Below, in pieces: positions 12,992 to 22,717 of a stretch of 64,000 bases of DNA. Position numbers and translations under genes: made by a program. The notes under the pieces are model-generated. The model was not told where the DNA came from and made no database searches. It worked only from the letters and a program-made list of their open reading frames with translations. Every line of letters starts with the position of its first letter. The stretch's first letter is position 1. The DNA is from Flavobacteriales bacterium (GTDB lineage: Bacteria; Bacteroidota; Bacteroidia; Palsa-965): NCBI GenBank assembly GCA_040377305.1, contig JBEIPA010000002.1, forward strand, positions 96,001-160,000. Direction: 5' to 3'.

Positions 12992-13116
12992 TCAAAGGAG
13001 GAAACGGGATCCAGGAATTTGGGAATAGGGTATTCGGGCTATATGAATTACGTTAAACTCAGCCCAAAACCCCTTTTCCCTTATTTCCCTAATCCCTATT
13101 TCCCTACCTTTCTTGA

Positions 13117-14196
13117 ATGAGGATTTTCCTTCTCGCTGCAACTATTTGTCTAAGCATTGTCATCAACGCACGTCAAATCCAACCGGGTTTCGACAGCCAG
13201 GAATTTCGTAAAATGTTTCAGATAAGTGCGCATCAAACCGACACACCCTGGGTGAAACTTAAATTCCCGTATCCCGGCGGATACAACATGGTGTATCGCT
13301 CACCGGTTGGCGGTCTCGACAATCGTTGGGACATGTGGATGAGTCCGGACTCGGTTGCGGTGATCAGTATTCGCGGCACAACGGGAACGAACGAATCGTG
13401 GTTGGAGAATTTTTATGCCGGTATGATTCCCGCTGAAGGAACGTTGAACATGGGTAACGGAAAGTTGTTCGACTACAAACTTGCAGAAGATTCACTCGCT
13501 TATGTGCATATCGGCTGGACAATCGGAATGGCAAGCATGGCTCCTGAAATTGTTACGCAAATGAATCTGCAATACAACAAAGGCATTCGCGACTTCATCA
13601 TCATGGGACACAGTCAGGGAGGTGCAATTGCGCTCTTGTTGCATTCCTACCTGCACTACTTACCCGATTCAATTTTGCCGAATGACATTCGCGTAAAAAC
13701 GTATGGAAGTGCAGCACCGAAAGTTGGGAATCAGAAATTCTCTTACGATTTCGATTTCATTTCACGTGGCGGTTGGGCATTTCGGATTGTGAATTCAGTC
13801 GACTGGGTACCTGAATGTCCGTTCACCGTACAAACTACTAATGATCTCAGTCACGGAAATCCATTCGCAGAACCAGAACGCGCCGGATTAACAGGTCCCG
13901 CGAAAGTAATTGCGAATCACGTCATTCGTAAAATGAACCGGAAAGCAAAACGTGCGGAGAAACGATTCCGGAAATATCTCGCCATCAAAACAGGAAAGTT
14001 TGTACGCAAGAAAATTCCCGGCATGCCTAAACAGGAATACGTGAAAAGTATGGCATACGTAAGTTGTGGTTCGCCCATTGTACTTGTTCCGGATAAACAC
14101 TACTACGATCTGTATCCCGACAGAGGTGGAATTTTCACGAATCACTATTTCGGCCCGTATTACTATTTGTTGAACGTGTATTATCCGGTGAAGTAA
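13117..14196 (+). CDS. Lipase class 3 family protein (secreted)
   Basis: Signal peptide, ISIRGT, nucleophile elbow GHSQGG, and DWVP. Confidence 0.88.
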   Translation: MRIFLLAATICLSIVINARQIQPGFDSQEFRKMFQISAHQTDTPWVKLKFPYPGGYNMVYRSPVGGLDNRWDMWMSPDSVAVISIRGTTGTNESWLENFYAGMIPAEGTLNMGNGKLFDYKLAEDSLAYVHIGWTIGMASMAPEIVTQMNLQYNKGIRDFIIMGHSQGGAIALLLHSYLHYLPDSILPNDIRVKTYGSAAPKVGNQKFSYDFDFISRGGWAFRIVNSVDWVPECPFTVQTTNDLSHGNPFAEPERAGLTGPAKVIANHVIRKMNRKAKRAEKRFRKYLAIKTGKFVRKKIPGMPKQEYVKSMAYVSCGSPIVLVPDKHYYDLYPDRGGIFTNHYFGPYYYLLNVYYPVK

Positions 14197-15830
14197 TGAC
14201 GACAAAATTCAAATCAAACCGAATCTTGAAACTACTCACGGCAGTGCTTATTGTCGCTGCAATGATGTGGTTCACTCAAAATGAATCACAAGCGAATACA
14301 GAAAGTGAATTTGTCGCGGGTGAACTGATCGTTCAGGTAAAAGAAGTACTACCCGATAATTTATCTGCGCTCGGCATACATAGCGTTCAACAAATCTGCA
14401 AAGACAAAAATGGACAGAGCAAAATTTATGTTCTGCATTTTGATGAATCAGAAGATGTTGTCGCTAAGAAAGAAGACCTTTTACAAACCGGAAGTTTCAT
14501 TTGGGCAGAACCAAACGGCTTTATGAAAGGCTGTGTGACTCCGAACGACTCGATGTTCTTTCGGCAGTACGGATTGGAGAATCTCGGTTCATTCAATCTC
14601 ACATTCTCCACCGCAGATTCTGATTCTGATTTACCGGAAGCCTGGAACATCGAACAAGGCGACACGAATGTCGTTGTTGCAGTTCTCGACGGAGGAATTG
14701 CCTTGGCGCATCCTGAATTTGCAGGAAGGATTTGGCAGAACTACACCGAGAATCCCATCAATAATATTGACGACGATGGCAACGGCTACATCGACGATTA
14801 TCAAGGGTGGAATTTCGCTTATGATACAAATTCTCCCGCCGATGATCTCGGACACGGCACTTCTGTAGCTGGTGTCATTGGTGCAAACGCCAACAACGCA
14901 ATTGGTCTCGCCGGCGTTGACTGGAACTGTAAGCTCATGGTCTGCAAAGTTCTCGATGGAAGTAATTTCGGAACGTACGCCGATATCGCTGACGCCATTT
15001 ACTACGCAACGAACAACGGTGCAGATATCATCAACATGTCATTCTCTGGTGGAGCGTCGAGCACCATCACGAACGCGGTACAATACGCATGGAACAACAA
15101 CGTGGTGATGTGCGCTGCTTCCGGAAATGGAAATACATCTACTCCATCTTTTCCCGCAGCAGATTCATTGGTACTCGCAGTCGGTGGGAGCAATGCCTGG
15201 GATGTCCGCTACCAATTCAGTAATTACGGTCCTCACATCGATGTAGTCGCAGCCGGTGACTACGTGTACATTCTGGATTACGCCAACTTCTCCAACTACG
15301 GAACTTATTCAGGAGGAACCTCACTTGCTTCTCCTTTCGTTGCAGGAGTTGCTGCATTGCTCAAAGCACAGGACACCGCACGCACAAATTCAGAAATCTA
15401 CAACATCATTCGCGCAACCGCCGAAGACACCGTTGACGTTTTCACCGGAGAAGATGTTGTTGGCTGGGATCAGTATTTTGGTTTTGGAAGAGTGAATGCG
15501 CATTATGCGTTGTTGTATGATAGTTTGAGTTTGGCGACGCCAGATTTGTCACCCTTCGGCTCCGCTCAGTCTGACAAAACCAATCAAATGTCAATTTATC
15601 CGAATCCGTTTTCTGAACAGGCGACGATTTATTCGAGTGTGGAGTTGAATGATGCGACGGCGGAGATTTATGATGCGAGTGGGAAGTTGGTGAGGGAAAC
15701 CCGAAATGTTTTAGGAAATACGATTCCGTTGGTGAGAGGTGAATTGGCAAATGGGACGTATTTGGTTGTGGTCACTGAAGATGGGATAGTGATTGAGAGA
15801 ATAAGGTTTGTTATATCCAATCCGAATTGA
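14196..15830 (+). CDS. S8 subtilisin-like serine peptidase with T9SS type A sorting domain
   Basis: VAVLDGG (Asp), GHGTSVAG (His), GTSLASP (Ser), and C-terminal IYPNPF...IYDASGKLV...GTYLV. Confidence 0.92.
   Translation: MTTKFKSNRILKLLTAVLIVAAMMWFTQNESQANTESEFVAGELIVQVKEVLPDNLSALGIHSVQQICKDKNGQSKIYVLHFDESEDVVAKKEDLLQTGSFIWAEPNGFMKGCVTPNDSMFFRQYGLENLGSFNLTFSTADSDSDLPEAWNIEQGDTNVVVAVLDGGIALAHPEFAGRIWQNYTENPINNIDDDGNGYIDDYQGWNFAYDTNSPADDLGHGTSVAGVIGANANNAIGLAGVDWNCKLMVCKVLDGSNFGTYADIADAIYYATNNGADIINMSFSGGASSTITNAVQYAWNNNVVMCAASGNGNTSTPSFPAADSLVLAVGGSNAWDVRYQFSNYGPHIDVVAAGDYVYILDYANFSNYGTYSGGTSLASPFVAGVAALLKAQDTARTNSEIYNIIRATAEDTVDVFTGEDVVGWDQYFGFGRVNAHYALLYDSLSLATPDLSPFGSAQSDKTNQMSIYPNPFSEQATIYSSVELNDATAEIYDASGKLVRETRNVLGNTIPLVRGELANGTYLVVVTEDGIVIERIRFVISNPN
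15546..15577 (+). repeat. 32-nt palindromic REP-like element inside the S8 peptidase CDS
   Basis: TTGTCACCCTTCGGCTCCGCTCAGTCTGACAA, 29/32 identical to the copy in hisC. Confidence 0.85.
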
Positions 15831-15843
15831 ACAAAATCAAGCC

Positions 15844-16179
15844 ATGAGTTTTGGAAAACATACCATCAGTGCAATTAAAGTTCAAATCACTAGTTACACT
15901 AGTGATGATAATCCTGGATTCGTCGAGTGCAGATTTCATGACGCATGGAATAAGGAACACGTTATCCATGATAAAGTTCCCGTTGTAACATTAGAGAATC
16001 TCGATGCGAACAGTGCCTACCCTCGCCCCGGTGTTATTGGATGCACCGTAATCAAGGAATGGATGGATGAGAACGGACGTGAAATAATCTCGGTAACCAC
16101 TGAAAAACCGTGGGCAATTGATTCCACCGAGGGCAATTACGAATTCGATATATTGGCTAGTCAAATTACAGAAATATGA
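15844..16179 (+). CDS. Hypothetical protein
   Basis: ORF with probable ATG at 15844 (PGFVECRFHDAW..DKVPVV..KPW). Its stop overlaps the next start. Confidence 0.7.
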   Translation: MSFGKHTISAIKVQITSYTSDDNPGFVECRFHDAWNKEHVIHDKVPVVTLENLDANSAYPRPGVIGCTVIKEWMDENGREIISVTTEKPWAIDSTEGNYEFDILASQITEI

Positions 16180-16517
16180 ATCCTGTTATCCCCTTCCAAA
16201 CCACATCCTGGTCCTCCCTCCCTTCCACCGAACACAAAGGAGACACGGGCACCGCCTTCTGGAAAACCCTCGAGTTCCCCGGTCTCCGCATCCGCATGGT
16301 TGAATATTCTCCGAACTACCTCGCCGATCACTGGTGCGAAAAAGGTCACATCATTTATTGCATCGAAGGAGAAATGGATACTGAGTTGGCTGATGGAAGC
16401 ATTCATAAACTCTCTGTGGGAATGTCATATCAGGTTTCAGACGGCTTGAGCTCGCACCGAACGAGTTCGAAGAATGGTGTGAAGCTGTTTATTGTGGATG
16501 GGAATTTTTTGAAATAA
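16176..16517 (+). CDS. DHCW-motif cupin-fold protein
   Basis: RMVEYSPNYLADHWCEKGH, SYQVSD..SSHR, KLFIVD. Confidence 0.88.
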   Translation: MNPVIPFQTTSWSSLPSTEHKGDTGTAFWKTLEFPGLRIRMVEYSPNYLADHWCEKGHIIYCIEGEMDTELADGSIHKLSVGMSYQVSDGLSSHRTSSKNGVKLFIVDGNFLK

Positions 16518-16539
16518 GTTCAATTAATACAATGGTATC

Positions 16540-16884
16540 ATGACCTCTCGAGACTTTGCCAAAGCATTTCATTACGAAAAGGAAAATCTTCTTGACCTTT
16601 ACTTTGAACGTAAGCAAACTCCAAACAACCACCGCGCAGAAGTAAGTATATTAATAGACCGATTGCACCTTGACTCCGATCAAAAAGAAACACTTCACAA
16701 AATGGTTGATAGTGTAATTACAGATGTGATGTACGCCATTCTGCTTGGTTTAGATGGTAGTGGTACAATTGGTAATCTTAGACAACAAGATTATAACATT
16801 ACTGATGAAGAAGGAAACACTGTGACTGACGGAGAATTGGGCGATGCTGCATACGATATTTTTCATGGAGATCAATCTGTGTAA
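16540..16884 (+). CDS. Hypothetical acidic protein
   Basis: 114-aa ORF containing ILLGLDG; the sequence is visibly more AT-rich than its neighbours. Confidence 0.7.
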   Translation: MTSRDFAKAFHYEKENLLDLYFERKQTPNNHRAEVSILIDRLHLDSDQKETLHKMVDSVITDVMYAILLGLDGSGTIGNLRQQDYNITDEEGNTVTDGELGDAAYDIFHGDQSV

Positions 16885-16928
16885 TCTGTCCCGACAGTAA
16901 ACGTCGGGACGGCAAAAGAAAACCACTC

Positions 16929-18083
16929 ATGATGAAACTGAAACTTCTTTATACAATCGTCTCTCTCCTCTTAGTTTCGACAACCGAGATCTTTGGAGCC
17001 TCAGACCCCTGCGACTCTGTAACCCTCACAAAACTGCCCGGACCAACACCAGCCTTCAACGCGGACAGTTCACTCTACCTCATCAACAAACTCGATAGAA
17101 CCGGAAAGAAAGGCGTCTACCAGATTTACATCGGCAAACGCGGCGATAAAGATTCCGTGCTCACCTGCATTTCGCTCAATGGTCCTGCCAACCGCCCTGA
17201 TTCCGAAGTCGGACGAGGCAAAAAACGTCCCTTCAAAAAACTCCACAAGATGCAAGTGCAATGGCACGCGTCCGGAAAGTTTATCATCTGCGCTGTCGAG
17301 TGGGATGATTATAACGAACTGCACTACACACCTTACAAAACACGACTCGGACTTCTTCAGTGCGGAATCTGGATGGACATTTACGCCGTTACGCCCGATG
17401 GAAAAACCTGGACGCGACTCGTAAAAACTGTTCGCGGATTCACCGGTCCTGCATTCACAGTTGATGGCAGCAAATGCTCCTGGGCAGAAGGACAAGACAG
17501 CGCTGATCTTCGCAAAGACAAATTCGGAAAATGGAAACTGAAGTTCGCCGAGTTTCAGGTCAACAACGGTGTTCCGTCGCTCACCAACATCAAAGACATC
17601 ACACCGAAAAATACAAACTGGGTAGAGCCCGGAAATTTTCATCCCGACGGACAACGTTTGCTCATCACTGCAGATTGCGGAATGACAGACGCACGCGGAC
17701 AAGATCAATTCATCATCAATGTCTACACCGGAGAACTCATCAATCTCAACAACACACCAAACGTCTGGGATGAACACGGACTCTTCTCCGCCGACGGATC
17801 AAAAATTGTGTGGATGAGTTCCTATCCCTATCGCAGCGATCCGAATTCCTATCGCATCATCAGCATCAAAACCGAATTCATGATCATGAACACTGATGGC
17901 TCCGATCAGCGTCAACTCACGCACTTCTGCGAAAAAGGCTATCCCGAATATGGTGCAGGCATAGCAGCTGTCGGCTGGTTCGAACCGGATGGATATTCCA
18001 TTACCGGATACACACTCCTTTTTCCGTACTACAATTTTTTCAGCATCCAATTCAACGGTCCCTGCGGCAAGGCTCAAAAATAA
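16929..18083 (+). CDS. TolB-like / PD40 beta-propeller secreted protein
   Basis: Signal peptide and repeated WHASGK, TPDGK, FHPDGQ, FSADGSKIV, MNTDGSDQRQLT units. Confidence 0.78.
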   Translation: MMKLKLLYTIVSLLLVSTTEIFGASDPCDSVTLTKLPGPTPAFNADSSLYLINKLDRTGKKGVYQIYIGKRGDKDSVLTCISLNGPANRPDSEVGRGKKRPFKKLHKMQVQWHASGKFIICAVEWDDYNELHYTPYKTRLGLLQCGIWMDIYAVTPDGKTWTRLVKTVRGFTGPAFTVDGSKCSWAEGQDSADLRKDKFGKWKLKFAEFQVNNGVPSLTNIKDITPKNTNWVEPGNFHPDGQRLLITADCGMTDARGQDQFIINVYTGELINLNNTPNVWDEHGLFSADGSKIVWMSSYPYRSDPNSYRIISIKTEFMIMNTDGSDQRQLTHFCEKGYPEYGAGIAAVGWFEPDGYSITGYTLLFPYYNFFSIQFNGPCGKAQK

Positions 18084-18148
18084 AATTTGCGCAATCTGAG
18101 AAATCTGCGAATCTGTGGCAAAGCGCGCTTGCGCGCAATGAGAAACGC

Positions 18149-19258
18149 TTATAGTACACCTTTCGTTGTCGGTAAAGAGTTATCTCCTGTATTTCTCTTC
18201 ACCGCCATCTTCACCGCTTTCGCAAACGCCTTAAACACACTCTCAATTTTGTGGTGCTCATTCTCTCCTTCCGCCTTGATGTTGAGATTACACTTCGCTG
18301 CATCACTAAACGACTTGAAGAAGTGAAAAAACATTTCCGTCGGAACATCACCAATCTTCTCCCGCTTAAATTCCGTCTCCCATTCTATCCACGGACGACC
18401 ACCAAAATCAATCGCAACCTGCGCCAAACAATCATCCATCGGTAACAGAAATCCGTAGCGTTCAATTCCGCGTTTATCGCCAAGCGCTTTTGCAAAACAT
18501 TCGCCGAGTGCAATTCCCGTATCTTCAATCGTGTGATGCTCATCAATATGCAAATCACCTTTCGCATCTATATTCAAGTCAATCGCGCCGTGCTTCGCAA
18601 TCTGCTCCAGCATGTGATCGAAGAAATTCAATCCGGTTTTGATTTCTGCCTTTCCCGTTCCGTCAAGATTGAGCTGAATCTGAATATCCGTTTCATTCGT
18701 CTTCCGAACTACAGACGCAACGCGCGATGGCTTCCGAAGAAATTCGTAAATCTCTTTCCATCCATCACAGATCAACGTAATCTTGTCTTCCCAACCATCG
18801 GCCTTGTCGTAATTGCGAATGAGAATTGATTTACAACCGAGATTCTGTGCAAGCTTAACGTCCGTAATCCGATCACCAATCACAAATGAATTTGCAAGAT
18901 CGTATTCGCCGGTCATGTACTTCGTGAGCATTCCCGTTCCAGGTTTACGCGTCGGAAGATTTTCTTCAGGATAACTTTTGTCAATGCACACTTCCGAAAA
19001 ATGAACGCTCTCATTCTCCAAACTCTCCATCACAAAATTCTGCACAGGCCAAAACGTTTCTTCCGGATACTTCTCCGTTCCCAACCCATCCTGATTCGTT
19101 ACCATCACCAATTCGAATTTACACTCCTCCGCAATCTTGCGCAGGTATGTAAACATTCCCGGCAGAAATTTCAGCTTAGAGAAACTATCAATCTGAAACG
19201 TATCCGGTGGCTCCCAGATCAACGTTCCATCGCGATCAATAAAAAGTACCTTTTTCAT
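18149..19258 (-). CDS. hisB: Bifunctional histidinol-phosphatase / imidazoleglycerol-phosphate dehydratase
   Basis: FIDRDGT HAD motif, [31 protein letters not shown]. Confidence 0.97.
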
Positions 19259-19271
19259 ATACTACCTTTTT

Positions 19272-19335
19272 TTGACCACTAAGCGCACAAAGACACAAAG
19301 CAATTTCTTTGTGTCTTCGTGAACTTCGTGGTCAA
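19272..19335. repeat. Imperfect inverted repeat between hisC and hisB
   Basis: TTGACCAC..AAGACACAAAG pairs with CTTTGTGTCTT..GTGGTCAA; the repeat contains the hisC stop. Confidence 0.75.
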
Positions 19336-20429
19336 TTTTTTATTTGTTCGAGCCTTGTAACAAGTTGAATGTTTTCTTCTGGTGTCCCTACAGTAATTCT
19401 AAGGCATCCTTCACACATCTCCACCTTCGATCTATCCCGCACCACAATCCCATTCTCCGCCAGAAAATCATACACACCTTTCGCATCATCCACTTTCACC
19501 AGCACAAAATTCGCATCACTCCCATAAATCTTCCTCACAAAAGCCAACTGCCCGAGCGCCTTCACCAACTTCTCTCTCTCCGCAACTGTTTCCTTAATCC
19601 ACGCATTCACCTGCTCAATATTCCCTAGCGCGTTCAACACTATTTCCTGCGCCGGACTTCCAATATTGTACGGAGGTTTAATTTTATTCATGATCTCCAC
19701 TATCGCTTCCGAAGCAAACAACATTCCCACTCTCACTCCCGCCAATCCCCACGCCTTCGAAAACGTTTGTAACACCACCAGATTCGGATACTCCGTCAGT
19801 TCAGAAATCATGGGCCGTTGCCGCGAATAATTCACATACGCTTCGTCCACTACAACCAATCCCTCGAAATTATTCAGGATAATTTCAATGTCTTCCCGAT
19901 TCATACTATTCCCCGTCGGATTATTCGGAGAACAAATCCAAATGATTTTCGTTTGATCGTCAACCGCCTCAGATATCTTCTCCACATCAAGCTGAAATTC
20001 CGCAGTGAGATTCACCTTGCGAACTTCAACATCATTAATATTCGCACTCACTTCGTACATACCATACGTCGGTGGAACAATGATCACATTGTCCTTCCCC
20101 GGATTACAAAACGCCCGATACAACAGATCAATCGCTTCATCACTGCCATTCCCAAGAAAAATGTTGTGAGCAGGAACACCTTTGATAAATGATATTTTCC
20201 CCTTCAACTCTTCCTGCAGCGGATCGGGATAACGGTTGTAGTTCGACTTGTCAGACTGAGCGGAGTCGAAGGCGGACAATGTCGTACCGAAGACTGGCAC
20301 CGGACTACCGAAACCATTCTCGTTCGCATCCAAATACACTTTCGCTTCTCCCGTAAACTCATGTCTCGCGGACGAGTATGGCTTCAGGTCTCGGATATTT
20401 TCTCTAACTATTTTATTTACGTCGAACAT
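19332..20429 (-). CDS. hisC: Histidinol-phosphate aminotransferase
   Basis: LDANEN, NRYPDP, GNGSDEAI, CSPNNPTG, DEAY, TFSKAWGLAGVRVG. Confidence 0.97.
   Translation of the reverse strand: MFDVNKIVRENIRDLKPYSSARHEFTGEAKVYLDANENGFGSPVPVFGTTLSAFDSAQSDKSNYNRYPDPLQEELKGKISFIKGVPAHNIFLGNGSDEAIDLLYRAFCNPGKDNVIIVPPTYGMYEVSANINDVEVRKVNLTAEFQLDVEKISEAVDDQTKIIWICSPNNPTGNSMNREDIEIILNNFEGLVVVDEAYVNYSRQRPMISELTEYPNLVVLQTFSKAWGLAGVRVGMLFASEAIVEIMNKIKPPYNIGSPAQEIVLNALGNIEQVNAWIKETVAEREKLVKALGQLAFVRKIYGSDANFVLVKVDDAKGVYDFLAENGIVVRDRSKVEMCEGCLRITVGTPEENIQLVTRLEQIKN
20248..20279 (-). repeat. 32-nt palindromic REP-like element inside hisC
   Basis: Coding-sense TTGTCCGCCTTCGACTCCGCTCAGTCTGACAA, encoding LSAFDSAQSDK. 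Confidence 0.85.
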
Positions 20430-20501
20430 ATTCCTTGAACATTGAACATCGTGCGTTGAACATTGAGCGTTTCATTCGAGTGCCCACCCACACCACCCTC
20501 C

Positions 20502-20528
20502 ATCGGCATATCGGCATATTGGCACATC
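20502..20528. repeat. ATCGGCAY octamer array x3
   Basis: Same unit as the arrays at 7532 and 27886, here in the hisD-hisC spacer. Confidence 0.8.
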
Positions 20529-20533
20529 ACTTC

Positions 20534-21814
20534 CTACTGTTGTTTCATCCGTATCGAGACCGCATTTCGGTGCGCCAGTAACCCTTCCGCCTCCGCCATC
20601 ACCTCCACAGTCCTCGCAATTTGCGAAAGTCCTTCTCTCGTCAGCTTTTGAAACGTAATCTTTTTCACAAACGAATCTACGGAAACTCCGCTCCATCCTT
20701 TTGCATTTCCACTGGTTGGCAGTGTGTGATTTGTTCCTGTAGCGTAGTCCCCAGCACTCTCGGGCGACCATTCTCCAATGAAAACACTGCCCGCATTCAC
20801 AACACGTGTACTCAAGAGCTCCGCGCGATCACACGCAAGAATCAAGTGCTCCGGTGCGTATTCGTTCAGCAATTCAATTCCTTGTTCAGCAGTTTGTACA
20901 AGAATCGCAAGACTGTTCTCGAGCGACTTCGTGGCAAATTCATTCCTAAGCAACCCTGACAGCTGAAATTCAATTTGCGCGCGCACATCTTCAATCACCT
21001 TTTTGCTTGTGCTCACCAACACAACCTGACTATCCGCACCGTGCTCGCATTGTGAAAGCAAATCAGCAGCAACAAAAGCCGGATTCACACGCTCATCTGC
21101 AAACACCGCAAGTTCAGAAGGACCTGCAGGCATATCAATCGGAAATCCATCCTTCGCAATCAACTGCTTCGCCATCGTAACCCACGAATTTCCCGGACCA
21201 AATATTTTGTACACCGGAGAAATAGTTTGTGTTCCATAACGCATTGCTGCAATGGCCTGCGCTCCTCCGATTTTGTAAATTTCTGTTACACCACACTCAC
21301 TCGCTGCATATAAAATGGCAGGATTAATATTTCCATTTTTATCTGGCGGTGTACACAAGATAATTCGTTTACAGCCGGCTATCGATGCAGGAATCGCGAG
21401 CATGAGCACCGTAGAAAACAATGGCGCAGTTCCGCCCGGAATATAAAGTCCTACTGATTCTATGGGAACACTTTTTCTCCACACACGAATGCCAGGCATT
21501 GTCTCCATCGAGTCTTCAGGACAAATCACAAACTTGTGAAACTTGCGAATGTTCTCCGATGCAATCTTAATTGCCAGTTTCAACTCCGGTTTAATCTGCG
21601 CCCTTGCAGCTTCAATCTCCGCTGTTGAAACACGAATGGAATCCAGATTTACTTTATCTATTTGGGAAGTTAGTTCGGCAACCGCTACATCACCTCTCTG
21701 AGCCACATCGTTGAGGATACGCAACACCTGTTCTTCTGTTGCCGAAGAAGCCGTTTTCGGACGAACAAATAATTCTCTCCAGCTTGTTCGCTCTGGAAAT
21801 TCTACATATTTCAT
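20534..21814 (-). CDS. hisD: Histidinol dehydrogenase
   Basis: GLYIPGG, KIFGPGN, IDMPAGPSE, DLLSQCEH, APEHL, GDYATGTNHTLPT. Confidence 0.97.
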   Translation of the reverse strand: MKYVEFPERTSWRELFVRPKTASSATEEQVLRILNDVAQRGDVAVAELTSQIDKVNLDSIRVSTAEIEAARAQIKPELKLAIKIASENIRKFHKFVICPEDSMETMPGIRVWRKSVPIESVGLYIPGGTAPLFSTVLMLAIPASIAGCKRIILCTPPDKNGNINPAILYAASECGVTEIYKIGGAQAIAAMRYGTQTISPVYKIFGPGNSWVTMAKQLIAKDGFPIDMPAGPSELAVFADERVNPAFVAADLLSQCEHGADSQVVLVSTSKKVIEDVRAQIEFQLSGLLRNEFATKSLENSLAILVQTAEQGIELLNEYAPEHLILACDRAELLSTRVVNAGSVFIGEWSPESAGDYATGTNHTLPTSGNAKGWSGVSVDSFVKKITFQKLTREGLSQIARTVEVMAEAEGLLAHRNAVSIRMKQQ

Positions 21815-22665
21815 ATCACCATCTTTTCAATCGGTACAACCAAAATTCCTTGCGCACCTTCATCGCGAAGGTTTTCGATAATTTCCCAAAACTGATTTTC
21901 TTCAATCACCGAGTGGACAGAGCTCCAGCCTTCCTCCGCCAGCGGCAAGATTGTCGGACTCTTCATTCCGGGAATCAAGGAACAGATTTTCTCCAGCTTA
22001 TCATTCGGCGCATTCAATAAAACATACTTGTTGCTTTTCGCTTTTCGTACAGCGCGCATGCGAAACAACAAACGATCAATAATCTTGTTCGCCTCTGCAT
22101 CACATTTTCCGCTGATCAATACAGCCTGAGAATGCATCACCGTTTCCACTTCCTTCAATCCATTCGAGAAAAGTGTACTTCCGCTACTCACGATGTCACA
22201 AATAGCATCTGCCAATCCAATGCCCGGTGCTATTTCTACTGAACCACTAATCGGTGTGATCTGTGCATTCACGAACTTCTCGTCCAAAAACTTCTGCAAC
22301 ACGTTGCTGTAAGTTGTTGCAATTCTTGACCCGGAAAGATCATTCACACCAGTATAGTTCTTCTCCTTCGGTACAGCAATACTCAACCTGCACTTGCCAA
22401 AGCCAAGCTTCTCCGTAATAGTCACATCCGCCGTCGATTCAACAAGGACGTTCTCCCCAACTATTCCAATATCTGCAACGCCCTGTTCCACATACTTCGG
22501 AATATCATCATCACGCAGAAACAAAACCTCCATCGGGAAATTAATCGCCGCCGATTTCAGTTTATTCATTCCGTTTTCGAATTCAACTCCACATTCCTTC
22601 AGCAATCGAATCGACTCTTCATTAAGCCGACCTGATTTCTGTATTGCTATTCTGATTTTTTTCAT
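21811..22665 (-). CDS. hisG: ATP phosphoribosyltransferase (long form)
   Basis: IAIQKSGRL, RDDDIP, GSVEIAPGIGLADAICD, and the C-terminal regulatory domain PGMKSPT. Confidence 0.97.
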   Translation of the reverse strand: MKKIRIAIQKSGRLNEESIRLLKECGVEFENGMNKLKSAAINFPMEVLFLRDDDIPKYVEQGVADIGIVGENVLVESTADVTITEKLGFGKCRLSIAVPKEKNYTGVNDLSGSRIATTYSNVLQKFLDEKFVNAQITPISGSVEIAPGIGLADAICDIVSSGSTLFSNGLKEVETVMHSQAVLISGKCDAEANKIIDRLLFRMRAVRKAKSNKYVLLNAPNDKLEKICSLIPGMKSPTILPLAEEGWSSVHSVIEENQFWEIIENLRDEGAQGILVVPIEKMVI

Positions 22666-22717
22666 CTTATTATAGATTTGCTCTGCGTCGCCGCGTCGCC
22701 GCGCCGCTGCGGTAAAC

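Follow-up and report, generated by a model that had tools for sequence, protein, structure and literature searches.

In-frame copies of a dispersed hairpin repeat in a Flavobacteriales genome and a candidate GIY-YIG nuclease partner in its relatives

The window is a stretch of 64,000 nucleotides (nt) from Flavobacteriales bacterium GCA_040377305.1 (contig JBEIPA010000002.1, positions 96,001-160,000 of the forward strand). It carries two copies of a short hairpin repeat, one inside the gene for an S8 peptidase and one inside hisC (Table 1). The two 32-mers agree at 29 of 32 positions, and translation bears out the original prediction that they encode LSPFGSAQSDK and LSAFDSAQSDK in a common sense frame of genes on opposite strands. 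The predicted hosts, a peptidase with a type IX secretion system (T9SS) tail and HisC, are upheld by Pfam and Protein Data Bank (PDB) matches. Counted in the window alone, the repeat gives a weak signal: there are two matches at up to 3 mismatches, a number also reached by 12 of 100 shuffles, and both window matches are exact.

Table 1. Features of the window that concern the repeat (aa, amino acids; PWM, position weight matrix)
Feature	Position	Strand	Remarks
Hairpin repeat copy, peptide LSPFGSAQSDK	15546..15577	+	Sense frame of S8 peptidase gene; PWM match
Hairpin repeat copy in hisC, peptide LSAFDSAQSDK, residues 51-61	20248..20279	-	PWM match
Remainder of enlarged HisC loop, VPVFGTT, residues 44-50	20280..20300	-	Loop of 35 vs 19 aa
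S8 peptidase with T9SS C-terminal domain	14196..15830	+	Pfam Peptidase_S8 157-431, Por_Secre_tail 467-530; insert in inter-domain linker
hisC, histidinol-phosphate aminotransferase, frame intact	19332..20429	-	Pfam Aminotran_1_2; best PDB matches HisC

The peptidase copy reads its conserved tag end (TTGTC) and its GC-GNA-GY mini-hairpin on the minus strand. In the HisC model, which has a mean confidence (pLDDT) of 87, residues 47-60 are the sole segment below 50. An insertion in this loop is confirmed, but its size between DANE and RYP is 16 amino acids instead of the 11 first proposed. The additional stretch contains CTTCGGTACG, which resembles the left half of element variants and has comparable half-motifs at other loci; judged by its sequence, it is likely the remnant of an older element.

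The element belongs to a dispersed family, as the original prediction of a REP-like repeat (repetitive extragenic palindrome) anticipated. The window's own genome (G000; 5.18 Mb in a 60-contig assembly) holds 81 copies at a PWM score of at least 18, compared with 0 in the reversed genome used as a control, and the element also stands at the ends of two of its contigs. Distribution is patchy across lineages: of 27 congeners compared (relatives are labelled G002, G007, G015, and so on below), 8 contain the exact 22-mer, with 1-126 copies each, as do 34 of 401 genomes of the class, mostly with 1-9 copies. The family is depleted from genes, with 26 of the 81 copies lying wholly within open reading frames (ORFs) of at least 190 amino acids, though such ORFs cover 82.5% of G000.

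The element is fixed at one end (…CAGTCTGACAA in the orientation of the original prediction), while the other differs between copies in its sequence and, by a single base, in its length. Read on the opposite strand, the unit is TTGTC-AGA-CTGAGC-GNA-GYCGAAG-nn-GAC. The tag end is TTGTCA on the hairpin strand, and its PWM columns are 94-98% conserved, partly owing to the choice of seed. The predicted palindrome stands in part. Stem positions 10 and 23 covary, with T-A in 53, C-G in 14, and a broken pair in 3 of 70 copies, so that a compensatory pair is kept in 67 of 70; under standard energy rules, however, the palindrome is weak, and the two window copies fold no better than shuffles (z -0.56 and +0.66). 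The sequence suggests tandem G.A mismatches in the stem, together with a GNA triloop, a structure that standard energies would miss.

Close pairs of elements in G000 (n = 16) are mostly arranged with the tags inward (12 pairs, 9 of them with spacers of 21-25 nt); two pairs have the tags outside and two are tandem. Longer pairs occur in relatives. Ten pairs from G013, chosen by a spacing of about 100 bp, have spacers of 77-79 nt with a mean identity of 49% (29% when shuffled), and ten pairs from G007 have spacers of 66-77 nt with identity near chance.

Several composite arrangements are present in G000. Nested copies, in which an element has been inserted within the loop of another of opposite orientation, occur at C7:92850-92900, C14:17690-17740, C51:13965-14020, and C51:23180-23225. 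The perfect palindrome CCCGATAGCTATCGGG (30 matches over both strands, 0 in the control) sits inside several copies, with insertions at C19:56811, C48:43960-44000, and near C10:93250. A full element is preceded by incomplete tandem copies of its variable half at C17:173292-174971, C45:30840-30901, and C17:244313-244370 (NadE, helicase, and RfbB), as if synthesis had restarted inside the hairpin. Six copies at C48:43198-44288 include a tandem duplication of a unit of about 143 bp that holds a pair.

Eighteen copies are counted as coding, these being the 26 in long ORFs minus 8 dropped by eye without a Pfam check: five within the first 16 codons, which likely lie upstream of the true start, and three in two apparent shadow ORFs. 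The 18 copies fall in 15 genes, with two copies each in AroE, a UvrD-like helicase, and RsmF. The other hosts are HisC, the S8 peptidase, LeuRS, MetRS, NadE, an RfbB-like dehydratase, MutS, UvrA, Alr-MurF, an S24 repressor, and two proteins without a Pfam match at 1e-8, one of which looks sigma-factor-like by eye. The insert lies between Pfam domains in S8, NadE, MetRS, and UvrA, and in a low-confidence loop of the model of HisC, the one host that was modelled. Copies are in frame and the genes intact, and an empty loop is seen in at least one congener for 11 host genes and 13 copies, which agrees with the proposal that the element enters tolerant loops of proteins that include housekeeping enzymes, as Rickettsia palindromic elements (RPEs) do. 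Net gains include +2 and +7 amino acids in AroE, +4 in LeuRS, +6 in MetRS, +7 in MutS, +8 in the S8 peptidase (whose G013 orthologue has no copy), +9 in RfbB, +12 in Alr, and +16 in HisC. Because these gains are small, host codons must often have been replaced.

The original prediction of a recurrent peptide tag fails. The 18 coding copies use four frames (sense-0 in 9, sense-2 in 4, antisense-1 in 4, antisense-0 in 1), and two of them share a frame with a probability of 0.31, owing to the dominance of a single always-open sense frame. The 21 coding copies of relatives, which are not independent, split 10/6/3/1/1. Retention of the element as donor of a functional tag, SAFDSAQSD, draws on the fact that its frame is the commonest in G000 (9/18) and in relatives (10/21), that only 0/18 and 1/21 copies use the antisense frame that is always open (CQTERSRRR), and that the UvrA and RsmF inserts are common to G000 and G015. 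Tolerance of small polar residues also explains this bias, and the host proteins, some cytoplasmic and some secreted, are unrelated to one another. In congeners, these loops are mostly empty; where they are filled, the insert is read in another frame, lies in the opposite orientation, or is an unrelated repeat. G007 largely refutes the tag by itself, since the corresponding HisC loop there contains this element in a different frame, and this explanation is accordingly given almost no credence. As the element is read in several frames, the shared peptide is likely a by-product. The inserted peptide is likely near-neutral, and what selection appears to favour is an intact frame in a tolerant loop.

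Certain loops are hit repeatedly, with other frames or other repeats at one site, namely those of HisC, LeuRS, AroE, and Alr-MurF and the MutS tail. Across 21 loci, the HisC loop from DANE to RYP has 19 amino acids in 13 and 15 in 3, and those of G013 and G008 are also short; the long loops are those of G000 (35 amino acids), G007 (30, the frame PASTPLGLT), and G002 (29, an unrelated repeat). The LeuRS loop holds an antisense copy in G000, a sense copy in G015, and a pair in G007, and is empty in G006 and G011. The first AroE loop contains the element family or its variants in 7 of 23 orthologues and, by eye, simple tandem repeats in about 7 more. A loose motif pattern also gave chance matches in conserved coding DNA (LeuRS column 546, MetRS column 83), which were ignored. 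One further genome, G012, is unpublished; it supplies 2 of the 28 nuclease loci described below with their tree rows, and one row each for AroE, HisC, and Alr, and no conclusion depends on it.

Heptamer tandem repeats (e.g., KIQNPKSKI) are translated in these same loops of AroE, RfbB, NadE, LeuRS, and MetRS (loci L099-L105, L108, L078, L086, and L094, from G011, G034, G037, G038, G018, G008, and G002). Several of these proteins are far longer than their orthologues, and the G011 LeuRS frame reaches 1194 amino acids.

Turnover of the element is visible between relatives. Among 48 loci of G015, which comprise most of its 68 matches, the counterpart in G000 is empty in 25, filled in 15, and unpaired in 8. 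Direct repeats of 3, 4, and 5 nt at the element ends of 70 copies are at chance level, and a miniature inverted-repeat transposable element with target duplication was rejected on this ground. At the strain level, contigs of 4 sequencing runs on window 13000-22700 contain no joint that skips either copy, with runs X2-X4 being fragmentary.

The variable flanks of the element are complementary to one another. Pairing at outward positions 3-8 totals 162, compared with 101±8.5 expected (0 of 2000 shuffles), and the paired fractions at positions 3-6 are 0.60, 0.57, 0.37, and 0.39 against about 0.26, followed by 0.13. The signal at positions 3-6 is replicated in G015 and G007 (0 of 1000 shuffles each). 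At locus L196, two orthologous sites agree in position, ends, and interior length of 20 nt, each genome has its own matched arms, and the interior matches the reverse complement of its orthologue at 15 of 20 positions and the direct sequence at 6 of 20. Opposite orientations at orthologous sites are also found in the sigma-like gene and in LeuRS. The inverted interior, the complementary flanks, and the frequent replacement of host DNA together fit template switching, which at short inverted repeats homogenises arms and inverts spacers, according to the available text of PMC8604942. The likeness to that system extends to spacer inversion that alters several codons at once; it differs in that the repeats described there are the inverted repeats of the yeast genes themselves, whereas here a mobile repeat would be the substrate.

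Flank complementarity could instead arise at insertion, through fold-back synthesis that runs up to a nick located 4-6 nt away from the tag, with opposite orientations being separate insertions. The excess pairing ends after outward position 6, not far from where SsnA cuts (3 nt before the NTS; PMC11893778), and at L187 both complementary flanks lie within inserted DNA. L196 speaks for template switching, since the same ends and length, inverted interior, and genome-specific matched arms reproduce the pattern of PMC8604942 as far as that source was available. Fold-back at insertion is considered rather unlikely, though a serious competitor.

Classical REPs are spread by RAYT/IS200-type HUH transposases (RAYT, REP-associated tyrosine transposase), and the original prediction looked to such an enzyme as a partner. 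G000 has 10 Y1_Tnp matches, none of which is flanked by the element, and the nearest copy lies 1325 bp away. The GTAG tag typical of RAYT/REPIN systems was not found; the tag of the element is TGTC, and CGTC-type repeats are reported in the consulted portion of PMC3733652 as unassociated with transposase genes. REP singlets and doublets are known RAYT products in the same portion, and the cognate GIY-YIG gene is missing from G000, which would suit a spread by RAYT with the GIY-YIG link as secondary. Flanking of GIY-YIG genes recurs across phyla, and spread by RAYT is held to be very improbable. A number of the 10 Y1 genes are located close to contig ends, each with its own unrelated flanking hairpins (C19:335-676, C1:655-993, C46:1073-1417, and C3:436-702).

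The candidate partner is a small GIY-YIG nuclease of the UPF0213 type. Among 30 GIY-YIG loci from five element-bearing congeners, five have the exact core within about 200 bp; they are found in G007, G010, G014, and G015. The five nucleases form one clade (support 96/94), apart from three presumed SsnA-like proteins (100/100), so labelled by their motifs. Tyr31, Tyr41, Gly43, Arg51, His55, and Glu89 are invariant in the flanked nucleases, and this Tyr, Tyr-x-Gly, Arg, His, and Glu set is taken to be the GIY-YIG active site. The best solved-structure matches are the UPF0213 proteins 1zg2 and 1ywl (E 2e-12 and 7e-12), while the SsnA-like control reaches only 2e-3. No NCBIfam family scored above cut-off for 10 nucleases, and an AlphaFold model from 5 sequences (pLDDT 42) was set aside.

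A profile search finds 28 UPF0213-type loci in 19 of the 27 congeners. Family-like hairpins stand on at least one side of 25 of these loci and on both sides of 15; the corresponding numbers for 45 housekeeping loci are 14 and 0. Among the best 80 of 485 GTDB loci, a core lies nearby in 16 of 20 UPF0213-type loci, compared with 15 of 44 SsnA-like and 7 of 34 housekeeping loci. The 20 loci come from Bacteroidota, Nitrospirota, Nitrospinota, Ignavibacteria, and Verrucomicrobia, and one of them duplicates L036. Within the clade, the innermost repeats mostly face their tags toward the gene; outside the genus, the tag of the nearest upstream copy mostly points away from the gene.

Other GIY-YIG genes and cassette-like structures accompany these loci. 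In G013, the tags-inward pairs with 77-79 nt spacers (L421-L430) carry end motifs that also occur in the inner flanks of the nuclease cassette of G007, and look like cassettes without a gene. None of the 8 GIY-YIG matches of G000 is flanked by the element. One of its genes (C56:71474-71800, minus strand) is SsnA-like, has a frameshift near its start and a near-identical intact counterpart in G015 (L044), and is bracketed tags-outward by a different repeat of the GTCATYGCGAG type (28 matches vs 3 in the control). Small GIY-YIG genes at C49:161895-162158, C21:114-386, C24:46695-46949, and C47:16576-16761 adjoin apparent tRNA genes by eye; three of these four have on their far side what looks like a duplicated part of the tRNA, and two look truncated. 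Contigs of the strain runs, compared with the G015 cassette at 80%, do not cover the nuclease gene, which proves nothing.

Taken together, the window copies belong to a hairpin family of about 80 copies that is mostly intergenic and survives in genes where the frame is kept in a loop or linker; the family is likely selfish and likely recognised and spread by the UPF0213-type GIY-YIG nuclease that the element brackets in relatives. By analogy with SsnA, as described in the available text of PMC11893778, the nuclease would bind the GTC-tagged strand as single-stranded DNA (ssDNA) and nick it a few bases 5' of the tag. Host repair at the break would then insert a copied hairpin unit, or a pair with tags inward, at new sites, often in exchange for host bases. 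Template switching by the polymerase between the TTGTC and GACAA arms may later perfect the flanks and flip the interior, swapping the encoded peptide, and copies in genes would survive by frame and loop tolerance. The G000 copies are now probably orphans, since the assembly has no such nuclease; the repeat-flanked gene could also be missing from the 60 contigs.

Several observations weigh against this account, which is judged probable as a whole. The element folds weakly under standard energies, and its G.A-mismatch and GNA-triloop structure is an inference. The family-level hairpin patterns were defined after the flanks had been seen and are loose, matching housekeeping loci as well (14 of 45 in one set, 7 of 34 in the other), and the pairing of repeat and nuclease is not exclusive because similar cores also flank SsnA-like loci (15 of 44). 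The profile search finds no gene of the cognate clade in the G000 assembly, and no exact-core-flanked nuclease was found in G013, which has 92 copies in an assembly that is 82% complete. Flank pairing is not replicated in G013 (61 vs 56; 201 of 1000 shuffles). Relatives are only 70-93% identical in protein, which leaves most junctions blurred at the level of single bases, and sites common to genomes may represent one old insertion that was later remodelled instead of several, though the peptide is not conserved at such sites.

Repeat and nuclease could also constitute a host-domesticated system, for example one that restricts incoming ssDNA as NTS/SsnA does in Neisseria, or one whose repeats act as RNA hairpins, with the coding copies as spill-over. 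Such a role is compatible with the favoured account of a nuclease-spread family. The hairpin cores are conserved while pair spacers diverge (the 49% mean identity of the ten G013 spacers), 19 of 27 congeners have UPF0213-type cassettes, and SsnA modulates transformation (PMC11893778). The patchiness of the exact motif in both the congeners (8/27, 1-126 copies) and the class (34/401, mostly 1-9) and the missing nuclease gene of G000 tell against domestication, which is regarded as unlikely.

Known repeat systems resemble the element in different respects. RPE-1, attributed to Ogata et al. 2000, is said to comprise mobile Rickettsia palindromes translated in frame in housekeeping proteins. The element shares this in-frame presence in housekeeping proteins; RPE-1 is a longer insertion according to the available portion of PMC3733652, while the unit here measures about 30 nt, frequently takes the place of host codons, and can flip where it stands. 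The CGTC-tagged REPs (Di Nocera et al. 2013, PMC3733652), which include R. conorii RPE-4 and RPE-6, are closer. In the text available from that source, they are short TGTC-tagged hairpins that occur as singlets and dimers, mostly between genes, and have no dedicated or linked transposase. In-frame copies, in several frames, are described there in tRNA synthetases, UvrA/UvrD, and other housekeeping genes, as are tags-inside dimers with variable spacers of similar length. Tags-inside pairs dominate here (12/16), whereas they are rare for CGTC repeats, which are mostly tags-outside (HH). CGTC families 1-4 have a stem of 8-9 bp, a loop of 4-5 nt, and an unpaired tail of 3 nt; judged against these dimensions, the element has an irregular mismatched stem and a 3-nt variable loop position, and its far end pairs back on the tag without such a tail. 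Intragenic table S3 of the same paper lists no peptide of this family.

The Ssn nucleases and their NTS/SRM repeats (Chenal et al. 2025, PMC11893778) provide the second parallel. In the available text, a single-domain GIY-YIG gene of about 100-140 amino acids is bracketed by genome-dispersed tagged hairpins, the Tyr, Tyr, and Glu residues are equivalently spaced, and mobility is raised merely as a hypothesis; the nuclease here is 41% identical to an SsnA-like protein of a congener. That text limits Ssn to cd10448, and the partner here groups apart from SsnA-like proteins, with UPF0213 as its apparent nearest relative. The published SRM pattern matches 0 of 70 copies at up to 2 mismatches, and it also missed the flanks of 3 SsnA-like loci. 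The innermost repeats here mostly turn their tags toward the gene, and 18 of 81 copies are intragenic, compared with 2% of NTS. A search for UPF0213 or cd10456 in the supplements of PMC11893778 gave no match in 12 of 14 files.

The UPF0213/YazA-type proteins that match the flanked nuclease best (1zg2, BH0048; 1ywl, EF2693) were deposited as hypothetical proteins. A term search of PMC1564403 found no mention of YazA or repeats, and no literature tie of the UPF0213 branch to repeats was found in a search largely outside subscription journals. In-frame REPs and RPEs, CGTC REPs in synthetases and repair genes (PMC3733652, in the part available), and repeat-flanked GIY-YIG genes of cd10448 (PMC11893778, likewise) are already published. 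On sequence evidence, what appears new is the repeat-flanked nuclease branch, whose activity is predicted, together with the tags-inward pairs and the in-place flips.

A broader proposal, which is tentative and somewhat doubtful as a whole, is that the repeat-flanked UPF0213/YazA subclade constitutes a second family of hairpin-specific single-strand nucleases. Its subclades would be paired to repeat variants and would spread the 30-nt element without a transposase or target duplication, and the in-frame element would serve as an invertible micro-cassette that swaps the loop peptide between SAFDSAQSD and VRLSGVEGD. The proposal bears on the means of spread of CGTC-type repeats, which lack a dedicated transposase, and of RPE-like coding palindromes, and the named enzyme-substrate pairs (L034, L036, and L035 with their own flanks) and the predicted cut position lend themselves to a direct cleavage test. 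It assigns a likely function to a structural-genomics family labelled "hypothetical", any new ssDNA nucleases with sequence specificity would be of use as tools, and the repeatedly hit loops chart insertion-tolerant sites in essential enzymes.

The window contains three further intergenic repeats, at 18075-18126, 19269-19338, and 20430-20533, which consist of 7-8-nt tandem units or short palindromes; contigs of sequencing run X1 pile up in number on the first two. Between the S8 gene and the his operon, window 15808-18083 holds four small or unknown ORFs of 123, 113, 114, and 384 amino acids without a Pfam match.

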